Shown: positions 33,551 through 57,819, counted from the stretch's first letter. The stretch is 64,000 bases of DNA from Oscillospiraceae bacterium (GCA_017435045.1 JAFSFT010000031.1:15274-79273); one strand, 5' to 3'. A program made the numbers and translations. The notes: generated by a model from the letters alone, not told the origin.

Positions 33551-36500
33551 ATGTTTTTGAAAAAGAGAAGATTACTGGCGGCAGTTGTTGCCCTGGCAAT
33601 GGTTGTAAATGCATACACACCTGTATTTGCAGCAATTCCGGACAAAGCAGTAACTGACCCCTACAGCATGACAGAAGGCGAACTTGTTGCACACGCATAC
33701 GACGAACTTTCTGAAGCTGAAAAAAACCTGCTTAAAGACGGCGAAGTAACAGTTGGTAAAACATACCCTATTACAAGACCGGCAAGCAGCGATAATCTGG
33801 TAGCAATCAACCAGGAAGCAAAGACAATCAAAGCAGACAGCTTTGAAAATGGCGAGCTTACATGGGTACCGGTATCTGCAGTTCTCACAGAGGACGGCAG
33901 TGCAACAGAAAATGTTGCTCTTGATGCAGAAGGCAACGGCACATTTGCTTCTACAGCAGACAACTATTCTGTAACTGTAAAGTACGCACTGTCTGTTGAT
34001 GTTGACGAAGCTTTGCAGACATCTATGGTTAAAACACCTGGATATCTTAAAGACGCTGTTGACAACCTTAAAGCTGTTGAAGCTAAAGAAACTGTAATCA
34101 AAGAATTCCAGGAAGAAATTCCAACTTTGTACAGTCTCGCAACAGAAGGCGTTCAGACTCCGCTTTCAAAGGTTAAATTCTTCCAGAAGAACAAACAGCC
34201 AATGCAGGAAATTCTGGACCTTAAAGCAGAATACGATGCAAACGGCGGCAAGCTTGATGTATTTAAAATGCTCCAGGATTACAAAGCTATCGGCACAGAC
34301 ACATCTGCAAAACTGGAATACCTTCTGGCAGGCAACAGAGTTGACAACGCAATGGTTTCACTTTATGAAAAAGTGACTGCATTGCAGGAAAACTTTGATG
34401 GTCTTTATGACCTTATCAAAGATCAGGACCTGATTGAAGATGCAACTGACATGGCTACACTTACAACAGCTCACGATGCATTTGCACTTCTTGTTGAAGC
34501 TCTCAGCCCTGTTGCAACAAAAGGCGAATGGGCAATCTTTACAGAAGACCTTGCTCTTGTTGACAATGTTGACACAGACAAACTTGCTGTTTATGTTGAT
34601 GCACTCGATGCACCTACAGGCGGCAGCGTAACAGTTGCAAAAACAATTGAAGTTGAAACAGTTGATGTTGAAGCTGCAGTTAACCTTGTAAATGTTACAA
34701 TCAAAGTTACAGGTAAAAAAGCAAACGGCGTTGCAGGCAGCAAAGACTTCGCAGCTATGCCTGAATACACAGCTGTTGTAAAAGTTTCCAAAGGCACAGC
34801 AAAAGCTGAATACATTGCAAAAGCTGTAGCAACAGGTAAAGAAGCAGAAGCTGTTGCAGCTTGGGGCATTGATGCAGCACACTTTAACGTTGTAACAAAT
34901 GAAGCTGAACTTCCAGCAGCTACTGTTGAAGGCGAAGACCTCGTTTATACAATCGAATATTCACCAAAAGAATATAAAATCACAGAAGATTGGTCCGGCG
35001 GTAAAGAAGTTGACGTACATTACGGTTACATCTACGAATTCCCAGACCACACAAATCCGGAACAGGCTTACATCTATACAGTAAGCGGTAACAAATACGA
35101 ACAGCACGAAACATACACTGTTGAAGGCGATGTAACTGTTACAAGAGTTGCAGACAAAGCTAAATTGCCATTCGCATGGAACAAAATTGTTTCTGACAGC
35201 GTAAGCAGCCTGTCTGCAAAAGAAAAAGCAATCCTTGCAAGTGATGCTATCGACCACGGCTCTATCAGAGTTAAGGTTCCTGCAGCAGATGCTAACAACC
35301 CACTTGCAACTGCTAATATTACAGAAAAAACTGTAACAGCAAAAACATACGATGCAGGCTACGAAAACAGAGTATGGGTACCGGAAACAGTATATGTTGA
35401 CGGTGTAAAAGCAGGCACATTTGCTGAAGATGGCGATGCTTACAAAGCAACATACACAGGCGATGGTACAAAGATTGAAGTTGGCTATGTTCTCGTAGTT
35501 GAAAATGCTGAAGGCGAAGCTATTGCAAACCTTCCACACACACTTTCTGAAGAAGCAAAAGATCAGAAAGAAGCCCTTGATGACCTTTACGGTTACAAAG
35601 GCACAATCGAAAGCAACGTAACATACCTCTCTATCGTTGACCTTGTTATCAACGGCACAAGCTACAACTTTACACAGTCTGTTAAAGATGCTTATGCAAA
35701 CCTTACAAAATATGGTATGACAGGCAGTGGCGACACAGCTAAGATGAACCTTGCAACAGAACTTGGTTACTACCATGACCAGGGTCTTGCATACTACTAC
35801 ACAGGCGGCGATGAAAAAATCGCATACCAGGTAGAACTTCTTGAAGACTTCTGTGTAGAACTTATTGATGACGGCGCTAACGAAGCTGAACTGGTAAAAG
35901 CTCTTGGCAACTACAGCGGTCTGCTTGATGCACAGGGCATGACAGTTGACGAAGTTGTTGGCAAGTTCGACAGCATCCTCGGCTTCCTTGCAGCTTACAA
36001 CCCACCTGCACCAAATGCAGCAATCGACGCAGACGCTAACGTTGCAGGCCTTGCAGCAGCACTTGTAGCAGAAGGCACAACAAGCAGCGGTCACAATGTA
36101 GAAAGACTCTATCTCTCTGCAAAAGTTGCAGCAGAAGTTGCAGGTAAAGCAACAGTAACATTTATCGAATACACAAATGGTGCAGAAACAGGCAGAGAAA
36201 CATATGTAATCGAAGATGCAACAGTTGCTCTTACACAGGATGATTACAATAAAGCAATGGCTAAATGGAATGTGCTTGAAGCAGACAACGACCCCAAACA
36301 TTACACAATGACTGGCGAAGAAGTTGAAGGCACAGCACTTAAAGTTGGCGAAATCCCAGCAAGCTTTGTTACATATATCAGAAACTGGACACCTGTTTCC
36401 TATACAGTAAAAATTGAAGGCGAAACAGACAAAACATTTGTATTCAACGGCAGCAAATATACAATCAATCTTCCTGGGGCACCAGAAGGCAGTGGATTAC

Positions 36501-39500
36501 AGTACATCTATAATGTACCTGGTAAAGGCGAAATCACAGTTAATGAAGGCGATAGTTCTCCTGTGACATATACTGTTGATGAAATGGATGCAGTTTGTGA
36601 TGCTAACCGTGTGGTTACAATCACAAGAACAGCAAAAGATGTTTCCGTAATAGTATTTGATTCTCTTATCAGCACAATGAACAGCAATATGGCTGCAGCA
36701 GCAAATGGCGGCGAACTTGGTTTTGCATTTATGCCATTTGAAAAAGACGGCGACAATGCTGTTGTAATGCGTGTTGCTTACAAAGACGGCCTTGACGTAA
36801 TGGGCATTATGCAGGCACTTGGTACAGCGTTGGCTACTGGCTACTCCAATGCTGAAATAGGCGGTCACACAGTTTGGGATGGTGAGTTAAGCATTCAGGG
36901 CATGACAAATGCATTTATCGACGCAGGCTTTGGTATGGACAGCGTTGATAAAATCATTGATGACAACGGTAATATCATCAACCTCAAGCTTGATAATTAC
37001 ACATACCTCCTCAATGACGTAGAAAACTACGGCGGTGCTACACTTACAAAGGGCGCTCTTGGCGGCGAACTTATCAAAACAACTCTTACATATACAGATA
37101 AGGGTTATGGTGTAACAGATACAGTTGATTTCTACATCACACTTGCAACAGACAAAAACCTTGCAAAAGTTGACAAGGCACTTAACTGGGCAGCTAACTA
37201 TGCAAATATCAACTCTGTTGACGGTAAAGTTCAGATTGACATGAACATTCCGGAAGAAATCTATGCACTCTATATGACATACATGCTTGCAGAACAGGAA
37301 ATCACACTTGACACATTCAATGATGTTGAGCTGGAAACACTCCTCGGCTATGCAAAAGATGTTGCAGAACCTCTTATTGCAGACCTTGCAGCAGGCGAAA
37401 AATATGATGCAGACAGATTCTTTACAGAACTTGTTATTGAAAATACACTCAAACAGTATATGCCAGGCAACACAACAGACCTGTCCAGCTACGGCTCTGT
37501 TATGAAAAAAGGCGTTAAACTTGTTGACAAAGTTCTCACAGAAGTTAAACGTGACAGCGTAACTTACAATGGCGACTCCTGCTCCGTAACACTTACAGTT
37601 GAAGGTGTTAGAGATATGGTGGCAGGCTATGTTGGTGGAAATGGTGAATTTGTAAAAGACTTTATCGTTGATGAACCACTTACAGTTGACGTTAAACTTA
37701 CACTTGCCAACGTAAACACAGTTTACGAAGCATACGTAGTTGAAATCCCTGCAGATATGAAATCCGCAGAAGATATCAAAAACATTACAAAAGAAGATAT
37801 TAAAGGTCTCCTTAAACTTACAAGCGACCTTGAAGCAACCCTTAAAGCAGCTAAAGGTCCTGCACTTGTAGTATTGCTCGAAGATGCAAAACTTGACGAA
37901 GCTGTAACTCTTAACAGCGAATATATCGTTATCGACCTTAACGGTCACACAATCACAGGCGATATGACAGCAGCAGGCACAGCAATTGTTGTTGATGATA
38001 CACTCTCCACAGCAAATGCAGGCGGCGTTAAAGGCACACTCAGCGGCAACTTCAAACTCTTTGCAGGTAACTACACAAGTGTTGAAGATGCAATGATTCC
38101 GGAAGAGTATGAATTTGAAGACGGTTACGTTTCCAACAAATACTACTACCTCAAATCCACAGAAAACGAAGGTAAACTTGAAGAAGTTACAATCGTTCTC
38201 AAAGACGGCGTATTTGACCTTACAAAAGACGACCTCAAGAAAGGTCTTGTAGACACACTTGTTAGCTGTTCTGTTAACGCAGTTGTAAATGTAGCAGCTA
38301 ACCTTTACGGCTACAACACAGCAGAAGTTAACGGCACATGGCTCTACTCCTTCGGTGACAAGAATGTTATCGATATGGTAAATGTTGCTAAGGGCGGCAA
38401 AAATGCAATTATCAACGAAATTCTCGGTTATGTAAACCCAACAGCAGTTGAAGAAATTGCAAACAGCGTTCTTGCTGCATTTGTTGGCGAAAACGCTATC
38501 GTAAACGCTGCAGCAGCAGATACACTCTACTCCTGCAACCTTACACTCTCTCCTTGGGATATCCTCTACTCCATCGAAGGCGGCACATCTGATGATGCAT
38601 ACTTCAATGTAGCATACGCAGGCGACAAGGATAATCAGGTAAATGTAAAACTCTCCTTTGCTATGGAAGAACAGCTCGATGCTCTCCTTACAGCAATCGG
38701 CGAAGTTGTTACAATCAACGCAGCAAAAGTTGACCTCCCTGATGAACTCACATACAGCGGCGGCAAGTCCCTCTCATCCTTCGGCATCAGCCGTGATGAC
38801 TTCGGCGGCGAAATTGATGTAGTTGTTGACTTTACAAAAGATACAAACTACGCAATCATCCTTGCAGCAGTTCTTGCTAATGCAGGCGACAAAGCAGCAT
38901 ACTCCAGTGCTGTAAACAACCTTATCGACAACGGCTCACAGGCAGAACTTAAGAGCCTTATCGACAAAACAACAGTTGCAGGTCTTATCGATGCTCTCGA
39001 AAAAGCAAACGGCAAGTCCTTCGCAGCAATGCTTGGTGCACTCAACATCAATGATGCAGCAAGAGTTGAAGAAATCAAAACTCTTGAAGCTAAATACTCC
39101 GACATTCTCAAAGCAATCTACCTTGTATTTGATTATGTAGACCTTACAGGTCCTGCTACAAAACTTGGCAGCGTTGAAACAGAATTTGGTGTATACTACA
39201 AAGAAGCTAAGAAATACAACATTGATGGTAAAGCAACAGTTAAACTGTTTACAAACAAAGCAGAAATCGTTTCCGTAACACCTGTTATCGATATGGCAGG
39301 CGATGCATTCTACGGCTTCCAGTTTGACGAAAAAGAAAATCTCCTTATCGTTGACACAGTTGTTGAAGGCATTACAGAAGCAGACCTTAAAGCTCTTGTA
39401 CAGTACACAGTAAACGAAGCAACAACAGACCACAGTCTCACAGTTGCAGCAGAAGACCTCAAAGACGGCAAAGTTATCAACGGTGCTAAACTTACAATCA

Positions 39501-39805
39501 GAGCTTGGAACGACATCAGCGAAGATGAAAGAGAATACACAGTTATTGTTCTTGGCGATACAAACTCCAGCGGTAAGATTGAAGTAGGCGACGCAACAAG
39601 AATTGCAAGACACAAACTTGGCCAGCTTACAACACCAATGACAGACGTTCAGCTTCTTGCAGCTGATACAAACATGGACGGCGACATCAACGTTGGCGAC
39701 CCAGTTAAGATCAGTGTAAAATGGATGTGCGCAACAAGTGATGAATACCTTGTAACATATCCTGACGGTTACAACACAGCACTGACAAACAAAATCATTA
39801 AATAA
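33551..39805 (+). CDS. Giant secreted protein (2084 aa) with a C-terminal dockerin
   Basis: Signal peptide MFLKKRRLLAAVVALAMVVNAYTPVFA. Very strongly biased codon usage. Internal IVIDLNGHTITGD module (~37930-37965). Dockerin at the C-terminus. No LPXTG. Confidence 0.9.
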   Translation: MFLKKRRLLAAVVALAMVVNAYTPVFAAIPDKAVTDPYSMTEGELVAHAYDELSEAEKNLLKDGEVTVGKTYPITRPASSDNLVAINQEAKTIKADSFENGELTWVPVSAVLTEDGSATENVALDAEGNGTFASTADNYSVTVKYALSVDVDEALQTSMVKTPGYLKDAVDNLKAVEAKETVIKEFQEEIPTLYSLATEGVQTPLSKVKFFQKNKQPMQEILDLKAEYDANGGKLDVFKMLQDYKAIGTDTSAKLEYLLAGNRVDNAMVSLYEKVTALQENFDGLYDLIKDQDLIEDATDMATLTTAHDAFALLVEALSPVATKGEWAIFTEDLALVDNVDTDKLAVYVDALDAPTGGSVTVAKTIEVETVDVEAAVNLVNVTIKVTGKKANGVAGSKDFAAMPEYTAVVKVSKGTAKAEYIAKAVATGKEAEAVAAWGIDAAHFNVVTNEAELPAATVEGEDLVYTIEYSPKEYKITEDWSGGKEVDVHYGYIYEFPDHTNPEQAYIYTVSGNKYEQHETYTVEGDVTVTRVADKAKLPFAWNKIVSDSVSSLSAKEKAILASDAIDHGSIRVKVPAADANNPLATANITEKTVTAKTYDAGYENRVWVPETVYVDGVKAGTFAEDGDAYKATYTGDGTKIEVGYVLVVENAEGEAIANLPHTLSEEAKDQKEALDDLYGYKGTIESNVTYLSIVDLVINGTSYNFTQSVKDAYANLTKYGMTGSGDTAKMNLATELGYYHDQGLAYYYTGGDEKIAYQVELLEDFCVELIDDGANEAELVKALGNYSGLLDAQGMTVDEVVGKFDSILGFLAAYNPPAPNAAIDADANVAGLAAALVAEGTTSSGHNVERLYLSAKVAAEVAGKATVTFIEYTNGAETGRETYVIEDATVALTQDDYNKAMAKWNVLEADNDPKHYTMTGEEVEGTALKVGEIPASFVTYIRNWTPVSYTVKIEGETDKTFVFNGSKYTINLPGAPEGSGLQYIYNVPGKGEITVNEGDSSPVTYTVDEMDAVCDANRVVTITRTAKDVSVIVFDSLISTMNSNMAAAANGGELGFAFMPFEKDGDNAVVMRVAYKDGLDVMGIMQALGTALATGYSNAEIGGHTVWDGELSIQGMTNAFIDAGFGMDSVDKIIDDNGNIINLKLDNYTYLLNDVENYGGATLTKGALGGELIKTTLTYTDKGYGVTDTVDFYITLATDKNLAKVDKALNWAANYANINSVDGKVQIDMNIPEEIYALYMTYMLAEQEITLDTFNDVELETLLGYAKDVAEPLIADLAAGEKYDADRFFTELVIENTLKQYMPGNTTDLSSYGSVMKKGVKLVDKVLTEVKRDSVTYNGDSCSVTLTVEGVRDMVAGYVGGNGEFVKDFIVDEPLTVDVKLTLANVNTVYEAYVVEIPADMKSAEDIKNITKEDIKGLLKLTSDLEATLKAAKGPALVVLLEDAKLDEAVTLNSEYIVIDLNGHTITGDMTAAGTAIVVDDTLSTANAGGVKGTLSGNFKLFAGNYTSVEDAMIPEEYEFEDGYVSNKYYYLKSTENEGKLEEVTIVLKDGVFDLTKDDLKKGLVDTLVSCSVNAVVNVAANLYGYNTAEVNGTWLYSFGDKNVIDMVNVAKGGKNAIINEILGYVNPTAVEEIANSVLAAFVGENAIVNAAAADTLYSCNLTLSPWDILYSIEGGTSDDAYFNVAYAGDKDNQVNVKLSFAMEEQLDALLTAIGEVVTINAAKVDLPDELTYSGGKSLSSFGISRDDFGGEIDVVVDFTKDTNYAIILAAVLANAGDKAAYSSAVNNLIDNGSQAELKSLIDKTTVAGLIDALEKANGKSFAAMLGALNINDAARVEEIKTLEAKYSDILKAIYLVFDYVDLTGPATKLGSVETEFGVYYKEAKKYNIDGKATVKLFTNKAEIVSVTPVIDMAGDAFYGFQFDEKENLLIVDTVVEGITEADLKALVQYTVNEATTDHSLTVAAEDLKDGKVINGAKLTIRAWNDISEDEREYTVIVLGDTNSSGKIEVGDATRIARHKLGQLTTPMTDVQLLAADTNMDGDINVGDPVKISVKWMCATSDEYLVTYPDGYNTALTNKIIK
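39554..39728 (+). other. Dockerin module (two EF-hand-like Ca-binding repeats) within the giant protein
   Basis: GDTNSSGKIEVGDATRIARHKLG ... ADTNMDGDINVGDPVKISVKWM. Both loops fit D-x-N-x-[DS]-G-x-[IV]-x-x-x-D followed by a helix. Confidence 0.8.
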
Positions 39806-39823
39806 TTAACAGGCAAAGGAAAA

Positions 39824-39848
39824 GCGCCTTAAAGCTTTTTTAAGGCGC
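39824..39848 (+). other. Stem-loop between the giant gene and the cohesin-like gene (no 3' U-tract)
   Basis: GCGCCTTAA-agctttt-TTAAGGCGC. The downstream sequence is ggctcctgcc, so it is not a canonical terminator. Confidence 0.4.
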
Positions 39849-39890
39849 GGCTCCTGCCAAAACAGTTTTATAGTTTTTGAAAGGATAAGT

Positions 39891-41012
39891 ATGTTTAACA
39901 AATTTAAGAAACTTGCAGCAGTTTGTGCAGCACTTACACTTACATTTGTGTTTGCTGCTACACCTGTTTCTGCTGCTACATCTGAAGTAACTGCTAAACC
40001 TGGCGAAACAGTAACAGTTAAACTGTTCAATGCAAAAGGCGAATTTGGCGTTGAAGGCGAAATCAGCTACGACAACAAAGGTCTTTTCTCCGACGTTTCT
40101 GTAGACTCCAAAGGCGGTCTCGGCGGCGAAATGACATCTGATGCTGTTTTCCTTTACAGCGGCGAAGAAGGCACAGGTAGCGTAAAACTTAAAGTTACAG
40201 TAAAATCCGATGCTCAGGCTGGCGACAAATGTGTTATCACATTCCCATACGAAACAGCAGACAGAGACGGTAACATGGTTGATAGCGGTGTAAACACTAT
40301 CACAGTTAAAGTTGAAAAGAAATCCAGCTCCGACGACAAAGATGATGACGATGACAAAACACCATCCACACCATCAGCAACACCAGCTCCTGTAGTAAAA
40401 TCTGACCTTACAGAAGCTAACCGCCTTATCGCAATGGTAGGCGAACTCAACAAAGCTGACTACACAAGCGACAGCTGGAATGCTCTTATCGCAGCATTGA
40501 ACAAAGTTAAAGCTCTTACAGTTTACACACCACAGGCAGAAGTTGACGCAGCAGTTGCAGCATTGCAGGCAGCTATCGACGGCCTTGTAAAAATTGACTA
40601 CACAGCACTTCGTGCAGCAATCGATGCAGCAGAAGCTCTCAAATCCGACTCCGAATTTGCAGCTCTCTGGAACGAATTGCTCGCAGCACTTGCAAACGCA
40701 ATGGCTAACCTCGAAGGCACATCTCAGGAAGAAGTTGACGCTAGCGCAGCAGCACTTGCTGATATCGTAGCTAGAATCCAGGCTTATCTTGCAGGCCTTA
40801 CAGAAGCTCCAGTAGTTCAGGAACCAACAGAAGAACCAGTTGAAGGTTGTGGCGTTCCATTCCACAAACTCCTCCTCATCCTTCTCGTTATCAGTGCAGC
40901 TCTCAACGTAGTTCTTGGCGGCGTTCTCTACAAAAATATGCAGAACAAAAACAAGAAACTTAAAGACGGCACACCAATGGTGAACTACAAAGCATCAGAA
41001 GACGATAAATAA
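39891..41012 (+). CDS. Membrane-anchored cohesin-like protein with helical FIVAR-like repeats
   Basis: Signal peptide ...FVFAATPVSA. Cohesin-like beta-sandwich AKPGETVTVKLFNAKGEFGVEGEISYDNKGLFSDVSV...AVFLYSGEEGTGSVKLKVTVKSDAQAGDKCVITFPYE. Asp/Pro/Thr linker. Helical repeats DYTSDSWNALIAALNKVKAL. C-terminal TM LLLILLVISAALNVVLGGVLY followed by a basic tail. Confidence 0.7.
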   Translation: MFNKFKKLAAVCAALTLTFVFAATPVSAATSEVTAKPGETVTVKLFNAKGEFGVEGEISYDNKGLFSDVSVDSKGGLGGEMTSDAVFLYSGEEGTGSVKLKVTVKSDAQAGDKCVITFPYETADRDGNMVDSGVNTITVKVEKKSSSDDKDDDDDKTPSTPSATPAPVVKSDLTEANRLIAMVGELNKADYTSDSWNALIAALNKVKALTVYTPQAEVDAAVAALQAAIDGLVKIDYTALRAAIDAAEALKSDSEFAALWNELLAALANAMANLEGTSQEEVDASAAALADIVARIQAYLAGLTEAPVVQEPTEEPVEGCGVPFHKLLLILLVISAALNVVLGGVLYKNMQNKNKKLKDGTPMVNYKASEDDK

Positions 41013-41027
41013 TAAGGAGCTTATTAA

Positions 41028-42485
41028 GTGTCTGAAAAATTTTCAAGAAAAATAAGCTATAACACCTGGGACGAGGCCTTCAGAGGCCTCGCCCCGAAGG
41101 TGCGTCAGGAATCAGTGCGTGTTGCTGAGTATGCACAGGTGTTATATCTGCAGGCAGTAAAAAGTGATTTTTACTCAGAAAATGAACGGTGGCAGAACAG
41201 AATGCAGTCCCAGTATGGCGAGCTTGCCTTTAAATGCGGATTGTATCATCAGTTCGGCAAGGCATTTATGCCAACAGAGCTTCAGCTGTGGAGCAACAAC
41301 AAAACAGAGGAGCAGCAATCTGCGTACAAGCAGTACACAGTTGATGGTCCTGTGCTTGTTGAGCACCTTCACAGAAAAACTGCAAGAGTAAGAACATGGG
41401 GCAGACAGCAGCCAATCGAGGACAAGATAGAAAATATTCCAACCCTTATGATTATGGAAAGCTGTGCCATGCATATGGAGCGTTTTGACGGTACAGGTTA
41501 TCCTGAAGGCCTTTCTCTGTATGATGTAAGCCCTATCGGCTACATAGTTGGTCTTGCAAAGGAGTTTGACCGCCTTGTGTGCAGCACAAAGTCCGAAACT
41601 CCGTTTGAAGATACCTTTGAAACTCTTACAGGCACATTAAATCAGTTTCCGCCAGAGCTTATTGATTGTCTTAAAAAAGTTAAATCCCAATATGAGGAGA
41701 TTTACAAAAAATACATTCAGTATTCCCGCACTTTGCCTGCAACAATTCCGCTTGTAGACAAAAGGGAAGACAGACCAATGGGGCTTACACTTACCCCAAT
41801 GTTAAGCACAAAAACACAGAAACCTGTATATTATATGGCAGATATATGGTTTGGCACCGAAATTATGAAAGTTCAGGAAGACCTGCCAAGCAACAATCTG
41901 GCATCTGTGTTTAAAAGAACAGGCATCTACCCTCAGCTTTGCACATATTTTATGTACGAAGCCTGCGACACAGTGCTCCGCATGGAGAACTGCCAGCTCA
42001 GTACAGAGGGTGTAATTCTCAACATTCTTCCTGAATTTTACTCACTGACCAACCAGATGGAATTGTTCGACAAGCTTTTTGCCGACCAACCGATTGACAA
42101 AAAGCACTTTATGCTTACAGTTCCGGAAAATGCGGTTATAAACGCAACAAAATCCACATTGGAAAACATCAGACGATATATGCGCCACGGCGTAAATATT
42201 GTGCTTAAAGATTATAACCCTGAAAGATTTTCAGTAGAAAAGCTTACCGAAATCGGCTTTAAATATGTAATTCCGTCAAAGGATCTGTACGGCACAGAAT
42301 ATCTTGCCAGAACAATTCCTATGCTGGAACGCCACAACATTAAGCTTATAGCTGCAGGTGTGGACGAAGCCGACAAGGTTGAATGGTTAAAAGAACACAA
42401 CTTTATCTGTTACGGCGGCCCTGCAGCAGGTGTTGCGGTAACAGAAGACAGCTTAATCCGTGAATGTCTTCTCAGCGAAGACTAA
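41028..42485 (+). CDS. Cytoplasmic protein with degenerate HD-GYP and degenerate EAL-like domains (putative c-di-GMP sensor)
   Basis: GTG start 7 nt after aaggag. LYHQFGK occupies the HD position (HQ at 41247-41252). AMHMERFDGTGYPEGL is the HHExxDGxGYP block with the first H changed to M. The C-terminal ~240 aa has EAL-fold spacing but reads KDYNPERFS instead of DDFGTGYS and IAAGVDEAD instead of AEGVE. Confidence 0.65.
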   Translation: MSEKFSRKISYNTWDEAFRGLAPKVRQESVRVAEYAQVLYLQAVKSDFYSENERWQNRMQSQYGELAFKCGLYHQFGKAFMPTELQLWSNNKTEEQQSAYKQYTVDGPVLVEHLHRKTARVRTWGRQQPIEDKIENIPTLMIMESCAMHMERFDGTGYPEGLSLYDVSPIGYIVGLAKEFDRLVCSTKSETPFEDTFETLTGTLNQFPPELIDCLKKVKSQYEEIYKKYIQYSRTLPATIPLVDKREDRPMGLTLTPMLSTKTQKPVYYMADIWFGTEIMKVQEDLPSNNLASVFKRTGIYPQLCTYFMYEACDTVLRMENCQLSTEGVILNILPEFYSLTNQMELFDKLFADQPIDKKHFMLTVPENAVINATKSTLENIRRYMRHGVNIVLKDYNPERFSVEKLTEIGFKYVIPSKDLYGTEYLARTIPMLERHNIKLIAAGVDEADKVEWLKEHNFICYGGPAAGVAVTEDSLIRECLLSED

Positions 42486-42495
42486 ATGAGAAAAG

Positions 42496-43620
42496 ATGAA
42501 AAAGAACAGCGAACCAAACAACACAAAACCCGAAGACAAGCTTAAACAGCAGCGGACACCTTTAAAGAAAAAACGTGCCGGTGTTGTTCTGTCACGCCAT
42601 CAGGTAAAGGAAATTAAAGCGGGGCGTAAAAAGCTTCGTAAAGAGCTTAAGAAGGCGGGCATAAAAAGCAAAAAGGACTTTGAGGTTACAGCGGCAAGCC
42701 TTGGTCTGTATTTTGACAAGCCAAAGGGCAGCCTGTTCTGGCTGCTGCTCAAGGGCAAAGCCCTGTGGGCACTGCTTGGTGCTGCGGCACTGTTTCTGTC
42801 GGTTCTGTTCCTTTTCTCTCTCCTCGAACAGATGAGAGGTCACTTTACCATCAACCTCAGTGAAGAGATGCTTAACAAAGGTTTTATCTTAAGCGAAACC
42901 GAGGATTTCTCAAACCCTGTAACGGTGCTTTACTGCGAGCCAAAAACCAACGTGGCGGCAACCTCCATATCCCATATCCCTACAGATGTTATGGATCATC
43001 AGGGTATGTATGATGACGACACAGTCTTTGCCTACAGCTTCTTTATGAAGTACGAGGGCGAGGAAACAGGCCATTACCGATATGATATAAAGGTTAACTC
43101 TGAATATCTTGACGTAAGCAAGGCCTGCTGGGTAATGGTTTTTGCAGACGGCGAAATGTCCTTCTATGCCGAAGAAGGCGCAGACGGCCTGCCGGAAAGC
43201 ATACCTGCACAGGACGATAACAGCCGCGGTTATCCGGAAGCATATTTTATGGATTATGCAAAAAATCCGGCCGACCAGTATGAAATTATCAAAGAAATCG
43301 GCAACGCAAAATATTATCGTCTTATACCAAAGCCTTTCAATGACGAAAGACGCGTTACAAGACAGGACGGTATGGCCCTTAACGACCAGGAATATCACAA
43401 ATACACAGTGGTAATCTGGCTGGAGGGTGACGACCCTGAATGTGTAAACGATATTATCGGCGGACATCTCGGTTTACAGATGAACTTTGCACTCCTCGGC
43501 GAAGAGGAAGAAGAGGACTTCGGCCTCAGCAACGAGGGCCTGCTTGATAACCTTGGTCAGTACTGGGTTAAATTTATAGAAGACCTTGAAAGTCTGTTTG
43601 GCGGATTGAAATACGACTAA
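42496..43620 (+). CDS. Family member A: type-II-anchored TasA-like-motif protein with a Lys-rich cytoplasmic tail
   Basis: 374 aa. Tail KKKRAGVV..KAGRKKLRKELKKAGIKSKK. TM ALWALLGAAALFLSVLFLFSLL. The ectodomain ends YTVVIWLEGDDPECVNDIIGGHLGLQMNFALLG, followed by EEEEEDFG. Starts 10 nt after the preceding stop. Confidence 0.6.
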   Translation: MKKNSEPNNTKPEDKLKQQRTPLKKKRAGVVLSRHQVKEIKAGRKKLRKELKKAGIKSKKDFEVTAASLGLYFDKPKGSLFWLLLKGKALWALLGAAALFLSVLFLFSLLEQMRGHFTINLSEEMLNKGFILSETEDFSNPVTVLYCEPKTNVAATSISHIPTDVMDHQGMYDDDTVFAYSFFMKYEGEETGHYRYDIKVNSEYLDVSKACWVMVFADGEMSFYAEEGADGLPESIPAQDDNSRGYPEAYFMDYAKNPADQYEIIKEIGNAKYYRLIPKPFNDERRVTRQDGMALNDQEYHKYTVVIWLEGDDPECVNDIIGGHLGLQMNFALLGEEEEEDFGLSNEGLLDNLGQYWVKFIEDLESLFGGLKYD

Positions 43621-43733
43621 ACTTAAACTTGGCATAAATTGTGCTTTGTTACAGCACTCACAGGGAGGGCTGGCACTGCACATTTATAAATAAATTTTTT
43701 AATCTTTAAAAAATAAGAAAGAAGGAGATTGCA

Positions 43734-45806
43734 ATGAACAACAGAAAAAAGCAGCTTAATTCTATTAAGAAAAAGATGATGGCTGCAACATCTATGTTAT
43801 TGGTAGCATCTATTATGATGGTTTCATCCACATACGCTTGGTTTACACTGTCAACTGCACCAGAAGTTACAGGTATTTCCACAACAGTAGGCGCTAACGG
43901 TAACCTTGAAATCGCATTGGCTAACCCACTTGGTGACCCATCCACAGTTACATCAGGCGTTGGCGATTCCACAGCAAGCGGTAAAGTAGTTACAGCTTCC
44001 AACCTTACTTGGGGTAACCTTGTAGACCTTGGCGATGCAAGCTACGGTCTTAAAGACATCGTTCTCCAGCCTGCAGCACTCAGCGCAGAAGAGGATGCAT
44101 TTACACATGCTATGGTAGTTAAATCCAACATCCTTTCCACACCTGAATACGGTGCAGACGGCAGAGTATCCGCTCTTGTAGACAAATCCACAACAGCGTC
44201 CTTTGATGCTCTGACAGGCAAATGGGTAACAGGTACAACAGAAAACCCAGGTTACGGTGTAAGAGCAGTTGGTCTGCTTTCCGGCCAGAGCGAAACAACT
44301 GTTGCATTCCGTGAAGCACGTGCACAGCTTTCTCAGCAGGCACAGAGTGCTAAAAACTCTGCAAGTGCTGCTTTGGTTGCAAACGGCGACACACTTGGTA
44401 ACGTTATCATCAAAAAAGCTCTCGACGGCGACGCAGCAAGCTTTACAGAAGAAGAACTTGATGCTCTTGGCGAAATGATCGGTGGTCTTGAACACACAAT
44501 GACATACATCGACAAAGCTATCCAGTACGGTGCTCTTGGCCGTGCAGCAAGTGCTGAATTTACAGATACTGTAAAATACGAAGCAATCAAAGCTGCAATT
44601 GCATCCACAGAAACACCTGCAACAGCAGAAAGCATCCTCAAAATCTTCTACGGCACAGTAGCTAATGATGCAGTTACACCTGCAGCTTCTGTTCCAACAG
44701 ATAAAACAGGCGATGTACTTATCGACACATACAACAAATACCTTGCAACAGTAGCTGCTATTGACGTAGCTAACGGTAAATACGAAACAGCTTCAGAAGC
44801 AGGCAACTACTCCTGGGAAGCTATTTCCCCAGTTCTCAACGCACTTGTTGTTTACAACAATGTAACAGTTAACGGCCTTACAGTTGACGATGTTAAAGCT
44901 AACATCAGCGCACTTGTAAACTCTGCTCTTAAAGGCGGTATCAAAGTTACAATGCCAACAGGCTCCGGTGTTATCGCTGACGTTGCTGACCTTGCAGGCG
45001 ACTACTCTGCAGGTATCACACTCAGAAACATCGAATATGCAGGTGCAACTGTAGAAGAACTTCCAGCTACAATGAACACAGCATCCACAGTTGACCCAGA
45101 ACACATCGAAAAAGTTTCTCAGTTCATCCTTTCCAAAGGTGCTATGACTTCCGGTACAGAAGGCGGCGACACATCTACATTTACAGATGCTTACGCTTAC
45201 ATCATCGACCTGTTCTTCAGAACAAACGTTGCAGGCTCTAACCTCCTGCTCCAGACAGAAGCTGTAGACCGTGTATACTCTGACCAGACAGAAGGTGCAA
45301 CACAGGGTAAAGGCAGCTCCATGATTTTCACAACAGAAAATACAGAAGCATTCTCTGTTCCACAGATGAAACAGCTTATGAACTGCATCAAACTTGTATT
45401 TGTTGACGAAGACAATGCAATCCTTGCAAAAGGTATGCTCGACGTTGCTTCCGCAACAGACACAGTTGAAGGCACAACAGGTACTGTTGAAGCAAAAATC
45501 AACCTTTACACAGAAACAACAGTTGACAATGTAACAACTGTAACAAAACTTGAAGGTACAGATGCTAAACTTGCAGCTCTTACACAGAACGAAGCTAAGA
45601 TGGTTTCTGTAATTGTTTACCTCGACGGTGCAAACGTTGACAACTCCATGGTTGCTAACGCTGCAACATCCATGACAGGTATGCTCAACCTCCAGTTTGC
45701 AAGCGATGCACAGCTTGTTCCAATGGAAAACAGCCAGATCAGAGACCTTCCTACAGGTGAAGAAGCAGGCGACAACACAACAGAAGGCGAAGGCGCAGGT
45801 GCATAA
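43734..45806 (+). CDS. Family member B (690 aa): candidate major fibre subunit with a TasA/SipW-type signal motif
   Basis: N-terminus KKKMMAATSMLLVASIMMVSSTYAWFTLSTAPEVTGISTTVGANGNLEIAL (TYAWF at 43830-43844). C-terminal VIVYLDGANVDNSMVANAATSMTGMLNLQFASDAQ. Codon usage is as biased as pheST and the SBP gene. RBS aaggag. Confidence 0.7.
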   Translation: MNNRKKQLNSIKKKMMAATSMLLVASIMMVSSTYAWFTLSTAPEVTGISTTVGANGNLEIALANPLGDPSTVTSGVGDSTASGKVVTASNLTWGNLVDLGDASYGLKDIVLQPAALSAEEDAFTHAMVVKSNILSTPEYGADGRVSALVDKSTTASFDALTGKWVTGTTENPGYGVRAVGLLSGQSETTVAFREARAQLSQQAQSAKNSASAALVANGDTLGNVIIKKALDGDAASFTEEELDALGEMIGGLEHTMTYIDKAIQYGALGRAASAEFTDTVKYEAIKAAIASTETPATAESILKIFYGTVANDAVTPAASVPTDKTGDVLIDTYNKYLATVAAIDVANGKYETASEAGNYSWEAISPVLNALVVYNNVTVNGLTVDDVKANISALVNSALKGGIKVTMPTGSGVIADVADLAGDYSAGITLRNIEYAGATVEELPATMNTASTVDPEHIEKVSQFILSKGAMTSGTEGGDTSTFTDAYAYIIDLFFRTNVAGSNLLLQTEAVDRVYSDQTEGATQGKGSSMIFTTENTEAFSVPQMKQLMNCIKLVFVDEDNAILAKGMLDVASATDTVEGTTGTVEAKINLYTETTVDNVTTVTKLEGTDAKLAALTQNEAKMVSVIVYLDGANVDNSMVANAATSMTGMLNLQFASDAQLVPMENSQIRDLPTGEEAGDNTTEGEGAGA

Positions 45807-45864
45807 TCGTCTAACTGTTTAAGTGCGATTTTGTTATCAATAACAAAAACTTACATATCTTATA

Positions 45865-45888
45865 TCGGGGCAGTGCCAACTGCCCCGA
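45865..45888 (+). other. GC-rich stem-loop after member B (no U-tract)
   Basis: TCGGGGCAG-tgccaa-CTGCCCCGA followed by ctaagataaaaaaa. Confidence 0.45.
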
Positions 45889-45928
45889 CTAAGATAAAAA
45901 AATTTAATAACGGGAGGAAATGTAAACA

Positions 45929-46915
45929 TTGAAAGTTTCACAGTATAAAAACAAAAAACGCTTTCAGATTGTTAAAGTTTTATATGTGACAATTGTCCTT
46001 CTTGCATTGACTACCGTTGCAACTTATACCTGGTTCAATTTAAGTACAAGACCATCCATCAACGATATGTCCATCTATATCAACAGCGGTGTCGGTCTGG
46101 AACTTTCCCTCGATAAAAACAGCGAGGAATGGTCATCCCAGATAGATTTCCGCGAACTGGAGATGGAAAACACCCCACTCGTACCAATCACTTATTCCCA
46201 GGCAGACAACAGCTTTTACACAGTTGTCCACGGTGCAGACGGCAGAATTGCAAGTGTAGACTATAAAATTCAGCCATCGCCAATACCAAAAAGTCTGGAA
46301 AATAACGGTTATTACCTCAAGGTTTCCTTTTTTGGCAGAACAGACGAGGATATAAAGGTTTATCTCTCTCCTGCAGTGGAACTGGAAAGAGGCACAGTTG
46401 GGGCGGGCACATGGCTTATCGGTGCACCTACATGGGATGGCGAAACTGTCAGCCACAAAAACGGCGGCGGCGGTGCCGAATACGCAATGCGTGTTGGCAT
46501 CAACATTACCTATCTTAACGAACTGGGCAACAGTACAGGCAATTCTGTCTTTTATATGTACGAGCCTAACTACGACGGACATCTTGACGGCTCCACAGGC
46601 TATGTTGAGACAAAGTCTGTAAACGGAGACCCGCTTATAAACGAGCAGTTTCTTATAAAACAGACCAAATCCACCTGGCGTGATGCCGACCTTGTGCAGA
46701 AAAATGTTATTATCAGCGACCTTGGCACCTTTGACAAGGAACCGTTGCTCTTTGAAATTGACGAGGGCGAAATGGTGCAGATAGAGCTTTATTTCTGGCT
46801 GGAAGGTCAGGATATCGACTGCGGCAACCTGCTTAACGAACAGTGTATGATTATGTCAAACATTCAGTTCCGTGCAGAAACAGAGGGCAGCAGCGAACTG
46901 CGTCCTATCTATTGA
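45929..46915 (+). CDS. Family member C (328 aa), TasA/SipW-type signal motif
   Basis: TTG start after gggagg. VLYVTIVLLALTTVATYTWFNLSTRPSINDMSIYINSGVGLELSL. HGADGRIASV parallels YGADGRVSAL of member B. C-terminal IELYFWLEGQDIDCGNLLNEQCMIMSNIQFRAE. Confidence 0.65.
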   Translation: MKVSQYKNKKRFQIVKVLYVTIVLLALTTVATYTWFNLSTRPSINDMSIYINSGVGLELSLDKNSEEWSSQIDFRELEMENTPLVPITYSQADNSFYTVVHGADGRIASVDYKIQPSPIPKSLENNGYYLKVSFFGRTDEDIKVYLSPAVELERGTVGAGTWLIGAPTWDGETVSHKNGGGGAEYAMRVGINITYLNELGNSTGNSVFYMYEPNYDGHLDGSTGYVETKSVNGDPLINEQFLIKQTKSTWRDADLVQKNVIISDLGTFDKEPLLFEIDEGEMVQIELYFWLEGQDIDCGNLLNEQCMIMSNIQFRAETEGSSELRPIY

Positions 46916-46965
46916 TGTTGCTGCTTTTACAGCAGACAGATTGTTATGTAATTTTTATAAATTGC

Positions 46966-47011
46966 ATACCAATCAAAGAACATAAAGCTTTTTGTGTTCT
47001 TTGATTGGTAT
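46966..47011 (+). other. Strong 17-bp stem-loop upstream of the first SipW gene
   Basis: ATACCAATCAAAGAACA (46966-46982) / TGTTCTTTGATTGGTAT (46995-47011). The T-run lies in the loop, not 3' of the stem. TATAAT follows immediately at 47011-47016. Confidence 0.5.
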
Positions 47012-47047
47012 ATAATGACCAAAAATATGTTTTCTTAGGAGGCGCTA

Positions 47048-47935
47048 ATGAAACTGAATAAATTTAACAAAAAAGAAAAACAACAGTTGCGGCAGGCTGC
47101 AGCGGGCGGCAATGTTGCAGAAAATGCCAACGGCGAAGTTATTGTTGTTGAAGAAGAAAAAGGAAGTATCTTAAACACAATTGTTAACGTCTTCCTTGTA
47201 GTTGCTATTGTAATAGCAGTTGTATGTACATATGTGTCATTTGTATCTACATCGGGCAGTGGTGTGCCAAGTATCCTTGGTATAAGACCATTCTCCATCC
47301 AGACAGAATCCATGTATCCTACATTCCTGCCTGGCGACCTTATCATCGATACAGCAGTTGACGACACAAGCGAGCTTGAGGTTGGCGATATCATCACATA
47401 CTGGACAATCATCAACGGCGAACGTGTACTCAACACCCATAGAATTTCAGCTATATATGACGGCGGCGGATACCTCATCTTTGCCACACAGGGTGATAAC
47501 AACCAGTCTGCCGACGCACTTACCGTTCACGAATCGGAGGTTGTAGGTAAGTATAAATTCAGGATACAGGGGTTAGGTAAAGTCTTTGACTATCTGCAGA
47601 CAAGCACAGGCTTCCTTATCGTTGTAGTTGTTCCTGTATTTATCTTCTTTATCTTCCACCTTATCAAGTTCTTCCAGGTGCTCTTTGAATATCAGAACAT
47701 CAAGAACAGAATCGTTTACGAACAGGAAAGAGGCAATGCAGAGGAACTTATTGCTGAACAGAAACGTCAGCAGGAAGAACTTAACCGTCTGCGTGAAGAA
47801 CAGAAAAACAAAGAAAAACAGGAGCTGGAAGAAAAACTGCGTGCTCAGCTTAAAGCTGAAATCCTCGCAGATATGCTCAAGGAAAAAGAAGCTGCTGCAC
47901 CTGCAGAAGCTGCACAAAACGTTGAGGAAGTATAA
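47048..47935 (+). CDS. Signal peptidase I, archaeal/ER (SipW) type, copy 1, with a C-terminal TM and coiled-coil tail
   Basis: 295 aa. Catalytic blocks FSIQTESMYPTFLPGDLII, NTHRISAI and ATQGDNN; compare B. subtilis SipW SGSMEP / THRI / TKGDNN (from memory). Second TM FLIVVVVPVFIFFIFHLIKFF, then EQKRQQEELNRLREEQKNKEKQELEEKLRAQLKAE. Confidence 0.8.
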   Translation: MKLNKFNKKEKQQLRQAAAGGNVAENANGEVIVVEEEKGSILNTIVNVFLVVAIVIAVVCTYVSFVSTSGSGVPSILGIRPFSIQTESMYPTFLPGDLIIDTAVDDTSELEVGDIITYWTIINGERVLNTHRISAIYDGGGYLIFATQGDNNQSADALTVHESEVVGKYKFRIQGLGKVFDYLQTSTGFLIVVVVPVFIFFIFHLIKFFQVLFEYQNIKNRIVYEQERGNAEELIAEQKRQQEELNRLREEQKNKEKQELEEKLRAQLKAEILADMLKEKEAAAPAEAAQNVEEV

Positions 47936-49557: not shown

Positions 49558-49571
49558 GGTGTAAAAGGACT

Positions 49572-51323: not shown

Positions 51324-51385
51324 AAGCAGTGTGCAGCAAATGCAGAGGCACTGTTTAAAAGAGATTTTTAAGGAGATATTCAACT

Positions 51386-52771: not shown

Positions 52772-52776
52772 AAACA

Positions 52777-55024: not shown

Positions 55025-55032
55025 TAGAAAAG

Positions 55033-55779: not shown

Positions 55780-55794
55780 AAGGGGGGAAAAGAA

Positions 55795-57801
55795 GTGCAT
55801 AAAAGAAAAATACATAGTATATATCTGTGCGTACTGTCTTTGGTTACAGCATTTATGATGTGTTATTTTTCTGTAGGCACTTCATACGCCCACTATACAT
55901 ATACAAGAGAAAAACAGATTATCATAAACGGCGACGGAAAGCTGGAATCCAATATCTTTTTTGAGGAAGGCTGTCAGGTTATCCTTAAGGACTGGGACCT
56001 TTCAAAGACCATTCCGCCGCAAAAGGTTACAGCACAGTTTACAGGCAGTGCAAAGGGCAGGCTTGAATATACCGTGCAGGGTGAATATGCACAGTATTTT
56101 ACAGTTTCCGTTAAATATGCAGAAAGCGGAAGTGCTGTGGGCACAAATATAATTGATATCTCTGCAGAAACACCAATCAATATTGAAATTGCACCTGTTA
56201 CACCTGCACTAAGCACACTTGCGGACGATATTTCTCCTGTGGTTGAGTTTAAACTGACAACCTACAATCAGGACGGTACAGCAGGCCGTGTGCTGCAGGG
56301 CAGCTTTGTGTGGAATATCCTTGCTGCCGATGCAGGCAGTTATGCAATAAATGCTGCAAATATGCTTGTGGCATCACGTGCAGTGCCTGTACGGCCAAAA
56401 ATAATGCAGCTTACCCTTGTACAGCAGGACGAACAGAATACTGATGCACCTGCAGAGGGCGGCGCTGAAGGCGACACAAACCCTGACGGTACAGAGGGCG
56501 ATACAGGCTCGGACAACACTACAGGTTCCGAGGGCAATACGGGTACAGGCGATACCACGGGTTCTGATGGTAATACCGGCACAGGTGATACCACAGGCTC
56601 TGACAATACAGGCGACAATACAACTTCGGGTGACGCAGGCACAGACGACACCACAGGCGGCAATACCGATGGTTCCGGCGATACTACAGGCGGCACCACC
56701 GAAACTCCTGAAGGCTCTGATGGCACAGGCGATTCTTCCGGCGAAGGTACAGAAGGCGAAGACGACAAGGATGACGAGGAAGAAGAGGAAACAGGCGATA
56801 ACGTTATAGAGGTTATTCCTGCACAGACAGACGTAGACATTATCCTTTGCAATGTGGAGGATGTGTTTGGCGTTGACGGTAAAATTACCTACACAAACAA
56901 AGGCCTTTTCTCCCGGATTACAGCGGACAACGGTGCAGGCTTCGGCGGCGGCTCCATTACAGAGGATATAGTTTTTATCTACGACAGCAAGGCCAGAAGC
57001 GGCGAAGCAGGCTTAAATGTTGATATTTCACCGGAAGCACAGATGGGGGACGAATGTATAATCACATTCCGTTACCAGACATCTGATATGCAGGGTGTTA
57101 TGTCTGAATATATTGAAGAAAAGATTACCGTAAGGGTAATCACCTCTGAACTTCCAACACTTGAAAATGTTGTGGTTACAGATGGCGAAAAGGTTACAAT
57201 CTACGCCACAGTAAACTATGTTCAGGGCACAAAAAACGGCAAAATCAGCGTAACAGGCGGCCTTGAACCTTATACAAAGGTTGTTACAGGCGACAAGATA
57301 TACATTCTGCCGTACGGCGGCAGCTTCCTGCATCCGCTGCCAACAAGGGATGCACAGACCGTTACATATATGGTGGAATATCCAAAGGATACAATTCCAT
57401 CGGAAGTAACAGTAGAAGCAACAAGCTGCTTCTCGGGCAGCTCGGGCGTAAAGGGCAAACAGACAACAGAGGTTAAGGATATGTCCAACACCACCTTTGC
57501 AGGCACCCAGCCACACACGATTATATTGTCATCCGACAATGCAATAGATTTTGATATTATACCAACCATAACAGAAGCAGGCCCTGTGGTTTCCTACACA
57601 GTGGAATACTACAATGGCGAAAGCTATGTTCCTGTTGATGCAGCAGCATTTAAAGGTGTGATATCACAGGACACAACAAAGCTCAGCCTGTCTACAGGCA
57701 CAAAATACCCAAGAGCGGGTGTTTACAGAATGTGTCTGCAGATGCAGCAGGGCAACAATTTATCAATCGCATACAAAACATTTTTCGTAAACTATAGATA
57801 G
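55795..57801 (+). CDS. Family member G (668 aa): TasA-like termini flanking a G/T/D-rich linker and a cohesin-like module
   Basis: GTG start. LCVLSLVTAFMMCYFSVGTSYAHYTYTREKQ. Low-complexity segment at 56440-56800. The module VFGVDGKITYTNKGLFSRITADNGAGFGGGSITEDIVFIYDSKARSGEAGLNVDISPEAQMGDECIITFRYQ is paralogous to the 39891 protein. C-terminal QQGNNLSIAYKTFFVNYR. Confidence 0.65.
   Translation: MHKRKIHSIYLCVLSLVTAFMMCYFSVGTSYAHYTYTREKQIIINGDGKLESNIFFEEGCQVILKDWDLSKTIPPQKVTAQFTGSAKGRLEYTVQGEYAQYFTVSVKYAESGSAVGTNIIDISAETPINIEIAPVTPALSTLADDISPVVEFKLTTYNQDGTAGRVLQGSFVWNILAADAGSYAINAANMLVASRAVPVRPKIMQLTLVQQDEQNTDAPAEGGAEGDTNPDGTEGDTGSDNTTGSEGNTGTGDTTGSDGNTGTGDTTGSDNTGDNTTSGDAGTDDTTGGNTDGSGDTTGGTTETPEGSDGTGDSSGEGTEGEDDKDDEEEEETGDNVIEVIPAQTDVDIILCNVEDVFGVDGKITYTNKGLFSRITADNGAGFGGGSITEDIVFIYDSKARSGEAGLNVDISPEAQMGDECIITFRYQTSDMQGVMSEYIEEKITVRVITSELPTLENVVVTDGEKVTIYATVNYVQGTKNGKISVTGGLEPYTKVVTGDKIYILPYGGSFLHPLPTRDAQTVTYMVEYPKDTIPSEVTVEATSCFSGSSGVKGKQTTEVKDMSNTTFAGTQPHTIILSSDNAIDFDIIPTITEAGPVVSYTVEYYNGESYVPVDAAAFKGVISQDTTKLSLSTGTKYPRAGVYRMCLQMQQGNNLSIAYKTFFVNYR
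56440..56800 (+). repeat. Low-complexity Gly/Thr/Asp/Glu-coding segment with imperfect tandem repeats
   Basis: Encodes DAPAEGGAEGDTNPDGTEGDTGSDNTTGSEGNTGTGDTTGSDGNTGTGDTTGSDNTGDNTTSGDAGTDDTTGGNTDGSGDTTGG...EGEDDKDDEEEEETGD. The unit GNTGTGDTTGSD appears twice in tandem. Confidence 0.8.
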
Positions 57802-57819
57802 GAGGCTTTCAGCAGAATC

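Follow-up and report, generated by a model that had tools for sequence, protein, structure and literature searches.

A giant secreted protein with a C-terminal dockerin and an adjacent membrane-anchored cohesin-like protein form a candidate plug-and-socket pair in an Oscillospiraceae locus with SipW-type signal peptidases

We analyzed a 64,000-nt stretch of DNA from an Oscillospiraceae bacterium (GCA_017435045.1, JAFSFT010000031.1:15274-79273; hereafter the window, with positions counted from its first letter) in which two adjacent genes appear to encode the two halves of a cohesin-dockerin interaction. The first encodes a giant secreted protein that ends in a dockerin, and the second encodes a smaller protein, here called the anchor, that carries a cohesin-like head on a membrane-anchored stalk (Table 1). 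On the basis of their sequences and predicted structures, we consider it probable that the dockerin of the giant plugs into the cohesin-like head of the anchor in a Ca-dependent manner and would thereby keep the giant attached to the cell surface.

The giant protein starts with a Sec-type signal peptide (residues 1-27, cleavage VFA/A) and ends, as a preliminary description made from the DNA alone had proposed, in a two-repeat dockerin. Dockerins consist of two tandem repeats of ~22 residues, each comprising a 12-residue EF-hand-like Ca loop (D-x-N/D-x-D/N/S-G-x-I/V-x-x-x-D) and a helix, and this is the arrangement that we found. Loop 1 (DTNSSGKIEVGD, D2003-D2014) and loop 2 (DTNMDGDINVGD, D2039-D2050) are each followed by a helix, both fit the Ca-ligand pattern D-x-N-x-S/D-G-x-I-x-x-x-D over their 12 residues, and the two loops, which lie 36 residues apart, are conserved in eight orthologues. 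The single sequence of the giant matched Pfam Dockerin_1 (PF00404) with an E-value of 1.2e-4 and 22.7 bits, which is 0.2 short of the cut-off of 22.9. This was the sole domain recognized in the Pfam scan, with no glycoside hydrolase (GH), carbohydrate-binding module (CBM) or other Pfam domain elsewhere in the protein, in agreement with the proposal that no glycoside hydrolase is involved; comparisons with NCBIfam, PHROGs and PDB sequences likewise returned nothing apart from the dockerin. When the aligned C-termini of four orthologous giants (profile A6) were searched against solved structures, ~30 solved dockerins were matched with E-values from 4.9e-9 to 1e-3, the best being those of R. bromii Amy16 (4.9e-9) and C. 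thermocellum Xyn10B (2ccl_B, 2.4e-8), with the CelS and ScaH dockerins also among the matches. Judged by these family comparisons, the C-terminus of the giant is a genuine, type I-like dockerin. Searches with a hidden Markov model (HMM) and a regular expression detected no further dockerin within the window.

In type I dockerins, loop positions 10-11 are the recognition positions, and recognition positions that are internally symmetric are a signature of dual-binding-mode dockerins. The window dockerin has V-G at these positions in both repeats; it thus resembles dual-binding-mode type I dockerins in its internal symmetry, but differs in the residues themselves from the type I dockerins of C. 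thermocellum, whose recognition residues are Ser-Thr. The two repeats carry the same residues in 7 of 8 orthologues, yet these residues vary from one orthologue to another (VG, SG, VG, AG/VG, SG, AR, VA and SN). Symmetry between the repeats combined with variation among orthologues suggests selection on a partner-binding surface. The dockerin is followed by a tail of 24 residues with the motif Y..SL.N..IK, in which the Tyr is invariant (Y76 in A6). By analogy with the intramolecular clasp reported for the R. flavefaciens ScaA dockerin (PMC3821032), this tail might fold back onto the dockerin in a clasp-like manner.

The identification of the anchor head as a remote homologue of cohesins is supported by its fold, by its family profile and by profile-profile comparison, and is weak at the level of sequence. 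In an AlphaFold2 (AF2) model of the anchor built from a nine-sequence multiple sequence alignment, the head forms a beta-sandwich with a predicted local distance difference test score (pLDDT) of ~80. Cohesins ranked 1-4 and made up about half of the top 50 when this model was compared with the PDB using Foldseek. The best match was A. cellulolyticus ScaB Coh6 (5nrm_A; E = 7.6e-6, probability 1.0, TM-score 0.59 on target), the second C. thermocellum OlpA (3ul4_A) and the third A. fulgidus 2xdh; further cohesins included 5lxv, 2zf9 and 4uyp, R. flavefaciens ScaC, ScaE and ScaG were among the matches, and the top cohesins spanned type I, type III and archaeal forms. The head belongs to a family that comprised at least 231 representatives at 50% identity in an exhaustive HMMER search. 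Among PDB sequences, the best match to a profile of 71 of its members (A4) was the cohesin of R. flavefaciens ScaE, over nearly the full length (8ajy_A, E = 4.6e-4; 4iu2_A, E = 5.3e-4), and cohesins accounted for 11 of the 21 PDB matches in this weak list. When A4 was aligned by hhalign with the sequences of four real cohesins that had been matched in the PDB searches (A5), the probability was 90.9% and the E-value 1.1e-6 over 100 columns. In this alignment, strands of the CipA cohesin are matched with exactly those four motifs in which the preliminary description had seen a cohesin strand pattern. Whether the head matches and folds as a cohesin had been set in advance as a test, and the agreement among Foldseek, A4 and hhalign answers it favorably, albeit with a weak signal at the sequence level. 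According to a 2026 study, many ruminococcal cohesins are so divergent that only AF2-based methods detect them (PMC13463774), a pattern that fits the window head. Four large proteins with matches in several stretches (P0079, P0142, P0154 and P0155) were considered as possible scaffoldins and rejected; they are bacterial cadherin/Big_9 repeat proteins in which the match is limited to a 30-residue hairpin, and they therefore provide no sequence bridge from the head to the cohesins.

The distribution of dockerins across related loci supports a functional link, as far as gene neighborhoods can indicate one, between the dockerin and the cohesin-like head. We sampled 12 distinct loci, counting L002/L003, L013/14/15 and L021/L022 as one locus each. 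An anchor whose head is cohesin-like is encoded in nine of them (the window, L001, L002/L003, L004, L009, L010, L011, L013/14/15 and L018), and in all nine it is directly preceded by a gene that ends in a dockerin; these dockerins have two repeats, with the second repeat alone visible in L011. The pair of giant and anchor genes is syntenic in every fetched locus with a cohesin-like head, and its recurrence in all of these related loci indicates that the arrangement is not due to chance. L001, L002, L004, L013 and L018 have giant orthologues, 2078-3144 aa long, in the corresponding position. In L010 the pair lies amid unrelated genes without the SipW locus that surrounds it in the window, which suggests that the pair acts as a two-gene module. 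The three remaining loci encode anchor orthologues with other head types. In L016 (2124-3122) and L020 (2636-3565) the head is replaced by an SH3_3 domain and the gene is still just upstream of an HD_5/EAL gene, and in L021/L022 (L021 10001-10720) the orthologue is headless; the orthologues of L016, L020 and L021 retain the FIVAR-like stalk, the Cys/His motif, the transmembrane helix and the TPLVDY tail described below. Neither a dockerin nor a cohesin-like domain was detected in L016, L020 or L021/L022, in L020-L022 even at E-values up to 1. A dockerin is thus found upstream in 9/9 loci with a cohesin-like head compared to 0/3 others (Fisher one-sided P = 1/220 = 0.0045, uncorrected for relatedness). 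A search with a profile of the stalk, transmembrane helix and tail (A9) gave at least 23 matches, among which the frequencies of head types are anecdotal.

Several observations weigh against a dockerin-cohesin pairing of these two proteins. The head taken alone matches Pfam Cohesin (PF00963) with an E-value of 0.02 and 15.5 bits, which does not reach the gathering cut-off of 24.1, over profile positions 7-130 of 139; the full-length anchor has no match to this family at E-values up to 1, and a weak match is present in only 5 of the 71 head-family members. The TM-scores of the head to cohesins reach only 0.5-0.6, and the Foldseek matches also include generic beta-sandwiches such as Caf1M and the N-domain of GH123. 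Cohesins are nine-stranded, flattened jelly-roll beta-sandwiches of ~140 residues, whereas the head has ~115 residues, ~25 fewer than the canonical length, and 7-8 modeled strands rather than nine; for these reasons we refer to it as a divergent mini-cohesin and not as a canonical member. The sampled loci number just 12 and are phylogenetically related. The transmembrane anchor would place the cohesin at or within the Gram-positive wall, and a linker and stalk of ~160 residues would have to carry it outward for it to reach the surface. Lastly, our view is that of the 64-kb window, and other cohesins or dockerins may be encoded elsewhere in the genome. Some of these observations would suit a head that is a generic Ig-like or beta-sandwich domain without dockerin binding, as would the weak matches of some family members to Big_9 and other Ig-like families. 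The dockerin would then bind a cohesin encoded elsewhere or would act simply as a stabilizing module that binds Ca, and the adjacency of the two genes would reflect a shared operon; Peer et al. in 2009 reportedly noted many non-cellulosomal dockerins with no known partner. We nevertheless consider this explanation improbable, as cohesins dominate both the fold and the profile matches of the head, the two repeats of the dockerin co-vary symmetrically, and the correlation between dockerin and cohesin-like head is perfect, with SH3_3 replacing the head where the dockerin protein is absent.

The proposal that the dockerin and the head form a self-contained pair needs to be amended, since the same operon encodes a second cohesin-like module (Table 1); there is one plug, and there are two sockets. 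The second module shares 43% identity with the anchor head (E = 5e-22) and lies within a 668-aa protein with a SipW-type N-terminus (GTSYAHYTYT) and a long low-complexity linker rich in Gly, Thr and Asp. The module is retained in an orthologue of this protein (P0057/L012, ~40% identical) that has the same neighbors. Because of this module, display of the giant may take place at the membrane stalk or, alternatively, on an extracellular structure produced by the SipW locus. Taken further, the second module itself could be the functional partner of the dockerin, in which case the membrane head would be a staging site or not a partner at all, and the giant would be mounted on the SipW structure. 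Such an arrangement would draw on the identity between the two modules within one operon, on the conservation of the second module in L012 and on its host having a SipW-type N-terminus in common with six other proteins of the locus. We regard it as unlikely, though still to be kept in view, given that the tight adjacency and the head/dockerin correlation involve the anchor gene and not the gene of the 668-aa protein, and that the pair is present in L010 without a SipW locus. Moreover, L013, as far as it is visible, showed no second module, and internal-module forms are scarce, with 2 among 150 listed family representatives.

The architecture of the anchor is that of a predicted type I membrane protein. 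The last base of the giant stop codon is 39805 and the anchor gene begins with an ATG at 39891, leaving a spacer of exactly 85 nt, the distance originally reported. The spacer contains a GC-rich hairpin that is not followed by a T-run (a U-run in the transcript) on the + strand; this element may be an mRNA stabilizer or a partial attenuator setting the giant-to-anchor ratio. A ribosome-binding site (AAAGGA, 39880-39885) precedes the anchor gene. The order of modules proposed for the product (signal peptide, ~110-aa module, Asp/Pro/Thr linker, FIVAR-like repeats and transmembrane anchor) was recovered in full, with each element where it had been placed. The linker is modeled with pLDDT <50 at residues 146-166 and leads into a stalk with AF2 helices at residues 174-184, 193-207, 215-230, 238-251, 254-274 and 279-304. 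FIVAR domains (Pfam PF07554) are three-helix bundles of ~70 residues. The window anchor scores 27.4 bits against this family, below the cut-off of 29.2; 76 of 110 anchor-family members match FIVAR at E <=0.01, the best with an E-value of 7.5e-30. CATASP, which Pfam matches in 39 of the 110 family members, was considered and rejected: the two matches that were checked map to the stalk with 17-18 bits, compared to a cut-off of 29, and reflect helical similarity to the FIVAR-like bundles. In a contig scan with the single protein, all matches were confined to FIVAR and came from unrelated Lachnospiraceae, Bacteroidales and Oceanobacillus. The combination of a signal peptide, a C-terminal transmembrane helix and basic residues predicts an N-out, C-in topology with the head extracellular. 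Neither Pfam nor NCBIfam reported an SLH domain or an LPXTG anchor, consistent with the earlier view that a transmembrane helix takes the place of an SLH or sortase signal. An anchoring scaffoldin is defined as a secreted protein that combines one or more cohesins with an envelope anchor (SLH, sortase signal or transmembrane helix), and the signal peptide, transmembrane helix and basic cluster of this protein correspond to that definition.

Several conserved features of the anchor lie around its membrane segment. The invariant residues C320 and H325 (Cys-x4-His, 40848-40865) border the transmembrane helix on its outer side, L331, S335, L338 and N339 are conserved within it, and the cytoplasmic tail carries the motif D.TP(L/M)V(D/N)Y.I.DD (40965-41003), with D192, P195, V197, Y199 and D204 invariant in A9. 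The Cys/His and tail motifs could be a processing, metal or signaling site. An invariant Cys/His motif followed by a transmembrane helix and a basic cluster is the three-part layout of known C-terminal sorting signals, and could be taken as a processed signal of the exosortase or MYXO-CTERM type, from which the cohesin protein would be released or re-attached. This seems highly improbable to us. Sorting signals end right after the basic residues, whereas in the anchor a conserved acidic tail of 20 residues (TPLVDY.I.DD) follows them, which is atypical of such signals, and Pfam and NCBIfam scans of the locus revealed no sortase, exosortase or rhombosortase genes. The anchor might, in addition, act as a transmembrane sensor. 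The stalk, transmembrane helix and tail are constant while the head varies, being cohesin-like, SH3_3 or absent, the Cys-x4-His and tail motifs are invariant, and the next gene encodes an HD_5/EAL protein. Of the distinct loci, 11 continue beyond the anchor gene, and in 9 of these the HD_5/EAL gene comes next, whatever the head type (the window, L001, L002, L004, L009, L013, L016, L018 and L020; L010 and L021/L022 are the exceptions). One could imagine that dockerin occupancy of the head or mechanical load on it is relayed via the tail to the HD_5/EAL phosphodiesterase, which would control the SipW locus, and that the second cohesin receives the giant for display on a fiber, but we hold this sensor reading to be quite doubtful.

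We therefore return to the pairing of the giant with the membrane head as the preferred explanation, and envisage it as follows. The giant would be exported by Sec, bearing its internally symmetric dockerin at the C-terminus. The anchor would be a type I membrane protein whose tip is a miniature, highly divergent cohesin, held off the membrane by the flexible acidic/Pro-Thr linker and the two FIVAR-like bundles. We infer that dockerin and cohesin bind physically and that this binding depends on Ca, so that the giant would be tethered non-covalently to the cell and presumably exposed at the surface through the wall. The outcome would be a one-to-one pair of anchoring scaffoldin and cargo, with the giant functioning as a non-enzymatic cargo. 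Given a choice between two cohesins, the dockerin would use the membrane head, and the module on the SipW-type protein would offer an alternative or later docking site.

The window is chromosomal, with pheT at 11477-13864, and the operon lies downstream of a sulfatase-family gene; homologues are annotated from metagenome-assembled genomes of Oscillospiraceae, Ruminococcaceae or Clostridia. In the metagenomic contig L001 (1-3035), the same operon directly follows Rep3, ParB and ParA genes. These neighbors hint that the locus may be mobile. In the window, the operon includes two genes for archaeal-type SipW-like signal peptidase I (Table 1), the first of which has a long coiled, charged C-terminal extension, as well as a transmembrane AAA_5 ATPase and many proteins without a recognized family. 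Seven proteins encoded within 42496-62136 have SipW-substrate-like N-termini, in which a transmembrane segment precedes TYAWF, TYTWF, SYAWL, ATFAW or SYAHY (for example ..TYAWF..GNLEIAL); their open reading frames (ORFs) start at 43734, 45929, 51386, 53459, 55033, 55795 and 57820, and they include the 668-aa protein. None of the seven is assigned to a Pfam or NCBIfam family. The products of the ORFs at 43734, 45929 and 51386 and of ORF 42496-43620 have in common the C-terminal motif (W/Y)L(E/D)G.(D/N)(V/I/P)(D/E)... The locus had been described as TasA/SipW-type, and the two peptidases bear out the second half of this designation. The first half, an identity with the TasA/camelysin fold, was not confirmed: for a 328-aa SipW-type paralogue, the sole paralogue modeled (AF2 pLDDT 81, predicted TM-score 0.79), the best PDB fold match had an E-value of 0.027, and TasA was absent from the top 50. 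The likeness of the locus proteins to SipW substrates is thus confined to their N-terminal motif.

Table 1. Coordinates of the giant-anchor pair, its modules and selected neighboring features in the window.
Feature	Position	Strand	Basis or remark
Giant secreted protein	33551..39805	+	2084 aa; ORF list
Dockerin, residues 2001-2060 of giant	39551..39730	+	Pfam, orthologue profile A6, repeat symmetry
24-residue post-dockerin tail	39731..39802	+	Alignment A6
10-bp perfect hairpin GCGCCTTAAA-gcttt-TTTAAGGCGC in 85-nt spacer	39824..39848	.	Sequence
Membrane-anchored cohesin-like protein (anchor), 373 aa	39891..41012	+	Predicted type I topology
Anchor signal peptide, residues 1-28, cleavage VSA/A	39891..39974	+	Sequence; hydrophobic window 8-26
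Cohesin-like beta-sandwich head, residues 29-143 (115 aa)	39975..40319	+	AF2, Foldseek, profiles
Acidic/Pro-Thr (Asp/Pro/Thr) linker, residues 144-172	40320..40406	+	Sequence; AF2
Stalk of two FIVAR-like three-helix bundles, residues 173-304	40407..40802	+	Pfam, AF2
Juxtamembrane motif EP....C(N/G)(I/V)..H	40821..40865	+	Invariant columns in A1, A9
Transmembrane helix, residues 327-347	40869..40931	+	Hydropathy; AF2 helix 324-356
Cytoplasmic tail, Lys-rich stretch then acidic part	40932..41009	+	A9
Cytoplasmic HD_5 + EAL protein, cyclic di-GMP phosphodiesterase-like	41028-42485		Directly after anchor gene
Two archaeal-type SipW-like signal peptidase I genes	47048-47935, 52777-53487		TIGR02228, 88.8 and 86.5 bits, cut-off 51.85
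Second cohesin-like module, residues 342-448 of 668-aa product	56818..57138 in ORF 55795-57801	+	Family HMM, E 8.7e-25
BspA-type leucine-rich-repeat surface protein, own signal peptide and C-terminal transmembrane anchor	62216-63916		3′ end of operon; LRR_5, E 7.5e-65

Non-cellulosomal cohesin-dockerin pairs, monovalent anchoring cohesins and predicted transmembrane-anchored single cohesins are already known. The last of these have been predicted in Ruminococcus (R. difficilis, HUN007, JE7B6 and zg921/924), Lachnoclostridium MSJ-17, H. luporum and C. cibarium (PMC13463774; PMC11557425), and the anchor resembles them in combining a single cohesin with a C-terminal transmembrane helix, presumed to be a direct membrane anchor for dockerin proteins; the Ruminococcus cases come from the same family as the window locus (Oscillospiraceae/Ruminococcaceae). 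However, the cohesins of those reports (PMC13463774; PMC11557425) are nodes of genome-wide cellulosome or amylosome networks with many dockerin proteins, some of which are enzymes. In the window, in contrast, the cohesin and a single giant, non-enzymatic cargo make up a fixed module of two genes, and the anchor differs from the predicted cases in the FIVAR-like stalk, the conserved cytoplasmic tail and the location in an operon with SipW-type peptidases. Dockerin-borne enzymes on scaffoldins, by which cellulosomes and amylosomes are recognized, were not found within the window, where the giant is without GH or CBM and no other dockerin is present.

The best match of A4, the type III cohesin of R. 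flavefaciens ScaE (4iu2, 2zf9 and 8ajy; partners CttA or ScaH (X)dockerin), is likewise a monovalent anchoring cohesin of the cell surface, and its cargo CttA is a non-enzymatic adhesin. Unlike the anchor, ScaE is attached to the wall by sortase and has an X-dockerin as its partner, and its cohesin is larger (~190-200 residues, compared to ~115 for the window head). The type I pairs of C. thermocellum (CipA Coh2-Xyn10B Doc, 1ohz/2ccl; OlpA-Doc918, 3ul4) are similar in that A6 matches 2ccl_B and the head matches 3ul4_A, and OlpA is a monovalent anchoring cohesin; in contrast to the window pair, they are anchored by SLH domains and their cargo is enzymatic. Non-cellulosomal modules were reportedly described by Peer et al. 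in 2009 and by Adams et al. in 2008, including the A. fulgidus cohesin 2xdh and the FIVAR-dockerin/X82-cohesin toxin complexes of C. perfringens (2ozn/2jnk). As proposed for the window, cohesin and dockerin are used there outside polysaccharide degradation, and in C. perfringens FIVAR accompanies the interaction modules. However, both C. perfringens partners are secreted glycoside hydrolases and FIVAR lies beside the dockerin, whereas in the window it is the cohesin protein that has the FIVAR-like bundles, as its stalk, and the cargo is devoid of enzyme domains.

A full-text literature search for cohesin, dockerin and SipW jointly returned only a general review. We did not find descriptions of a conserved two-gene module that combines a giant non-enzymatic dockerin protein with a private mini-cohesin on a FIVAR-like stalk, of such a module inside a locus with SipW-type peptidases, of a paralogous cohesin in a protein whose N-terminus is of the SipW type, or of head-swapping on a constant scaffold of stalk, transmembrane helix and tail. 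With the pair described here, the cohesin-dockerin interaction would extend beyond enzyme scaffolding to a dedicated plug and socket, encoded in an operon, that serves a giant protein of uncultured Oscillospiraceae from gut and rumen. The pair also draws attention to a large family of mini-cohesins (231 or more clusters at 50% identity) that Pfam does not recognize and that sequence-based surveys of cellulosomes would miss. One-to-one cognate pairs with natural variation in their recognition residues would constitute an orthogonal binding set for specificity studies and synthetic biology, and the head-swap pattern together with the second cohesin leads to testable hypotheses on how the SipW-associated locus may assemble structures at the cell surface.

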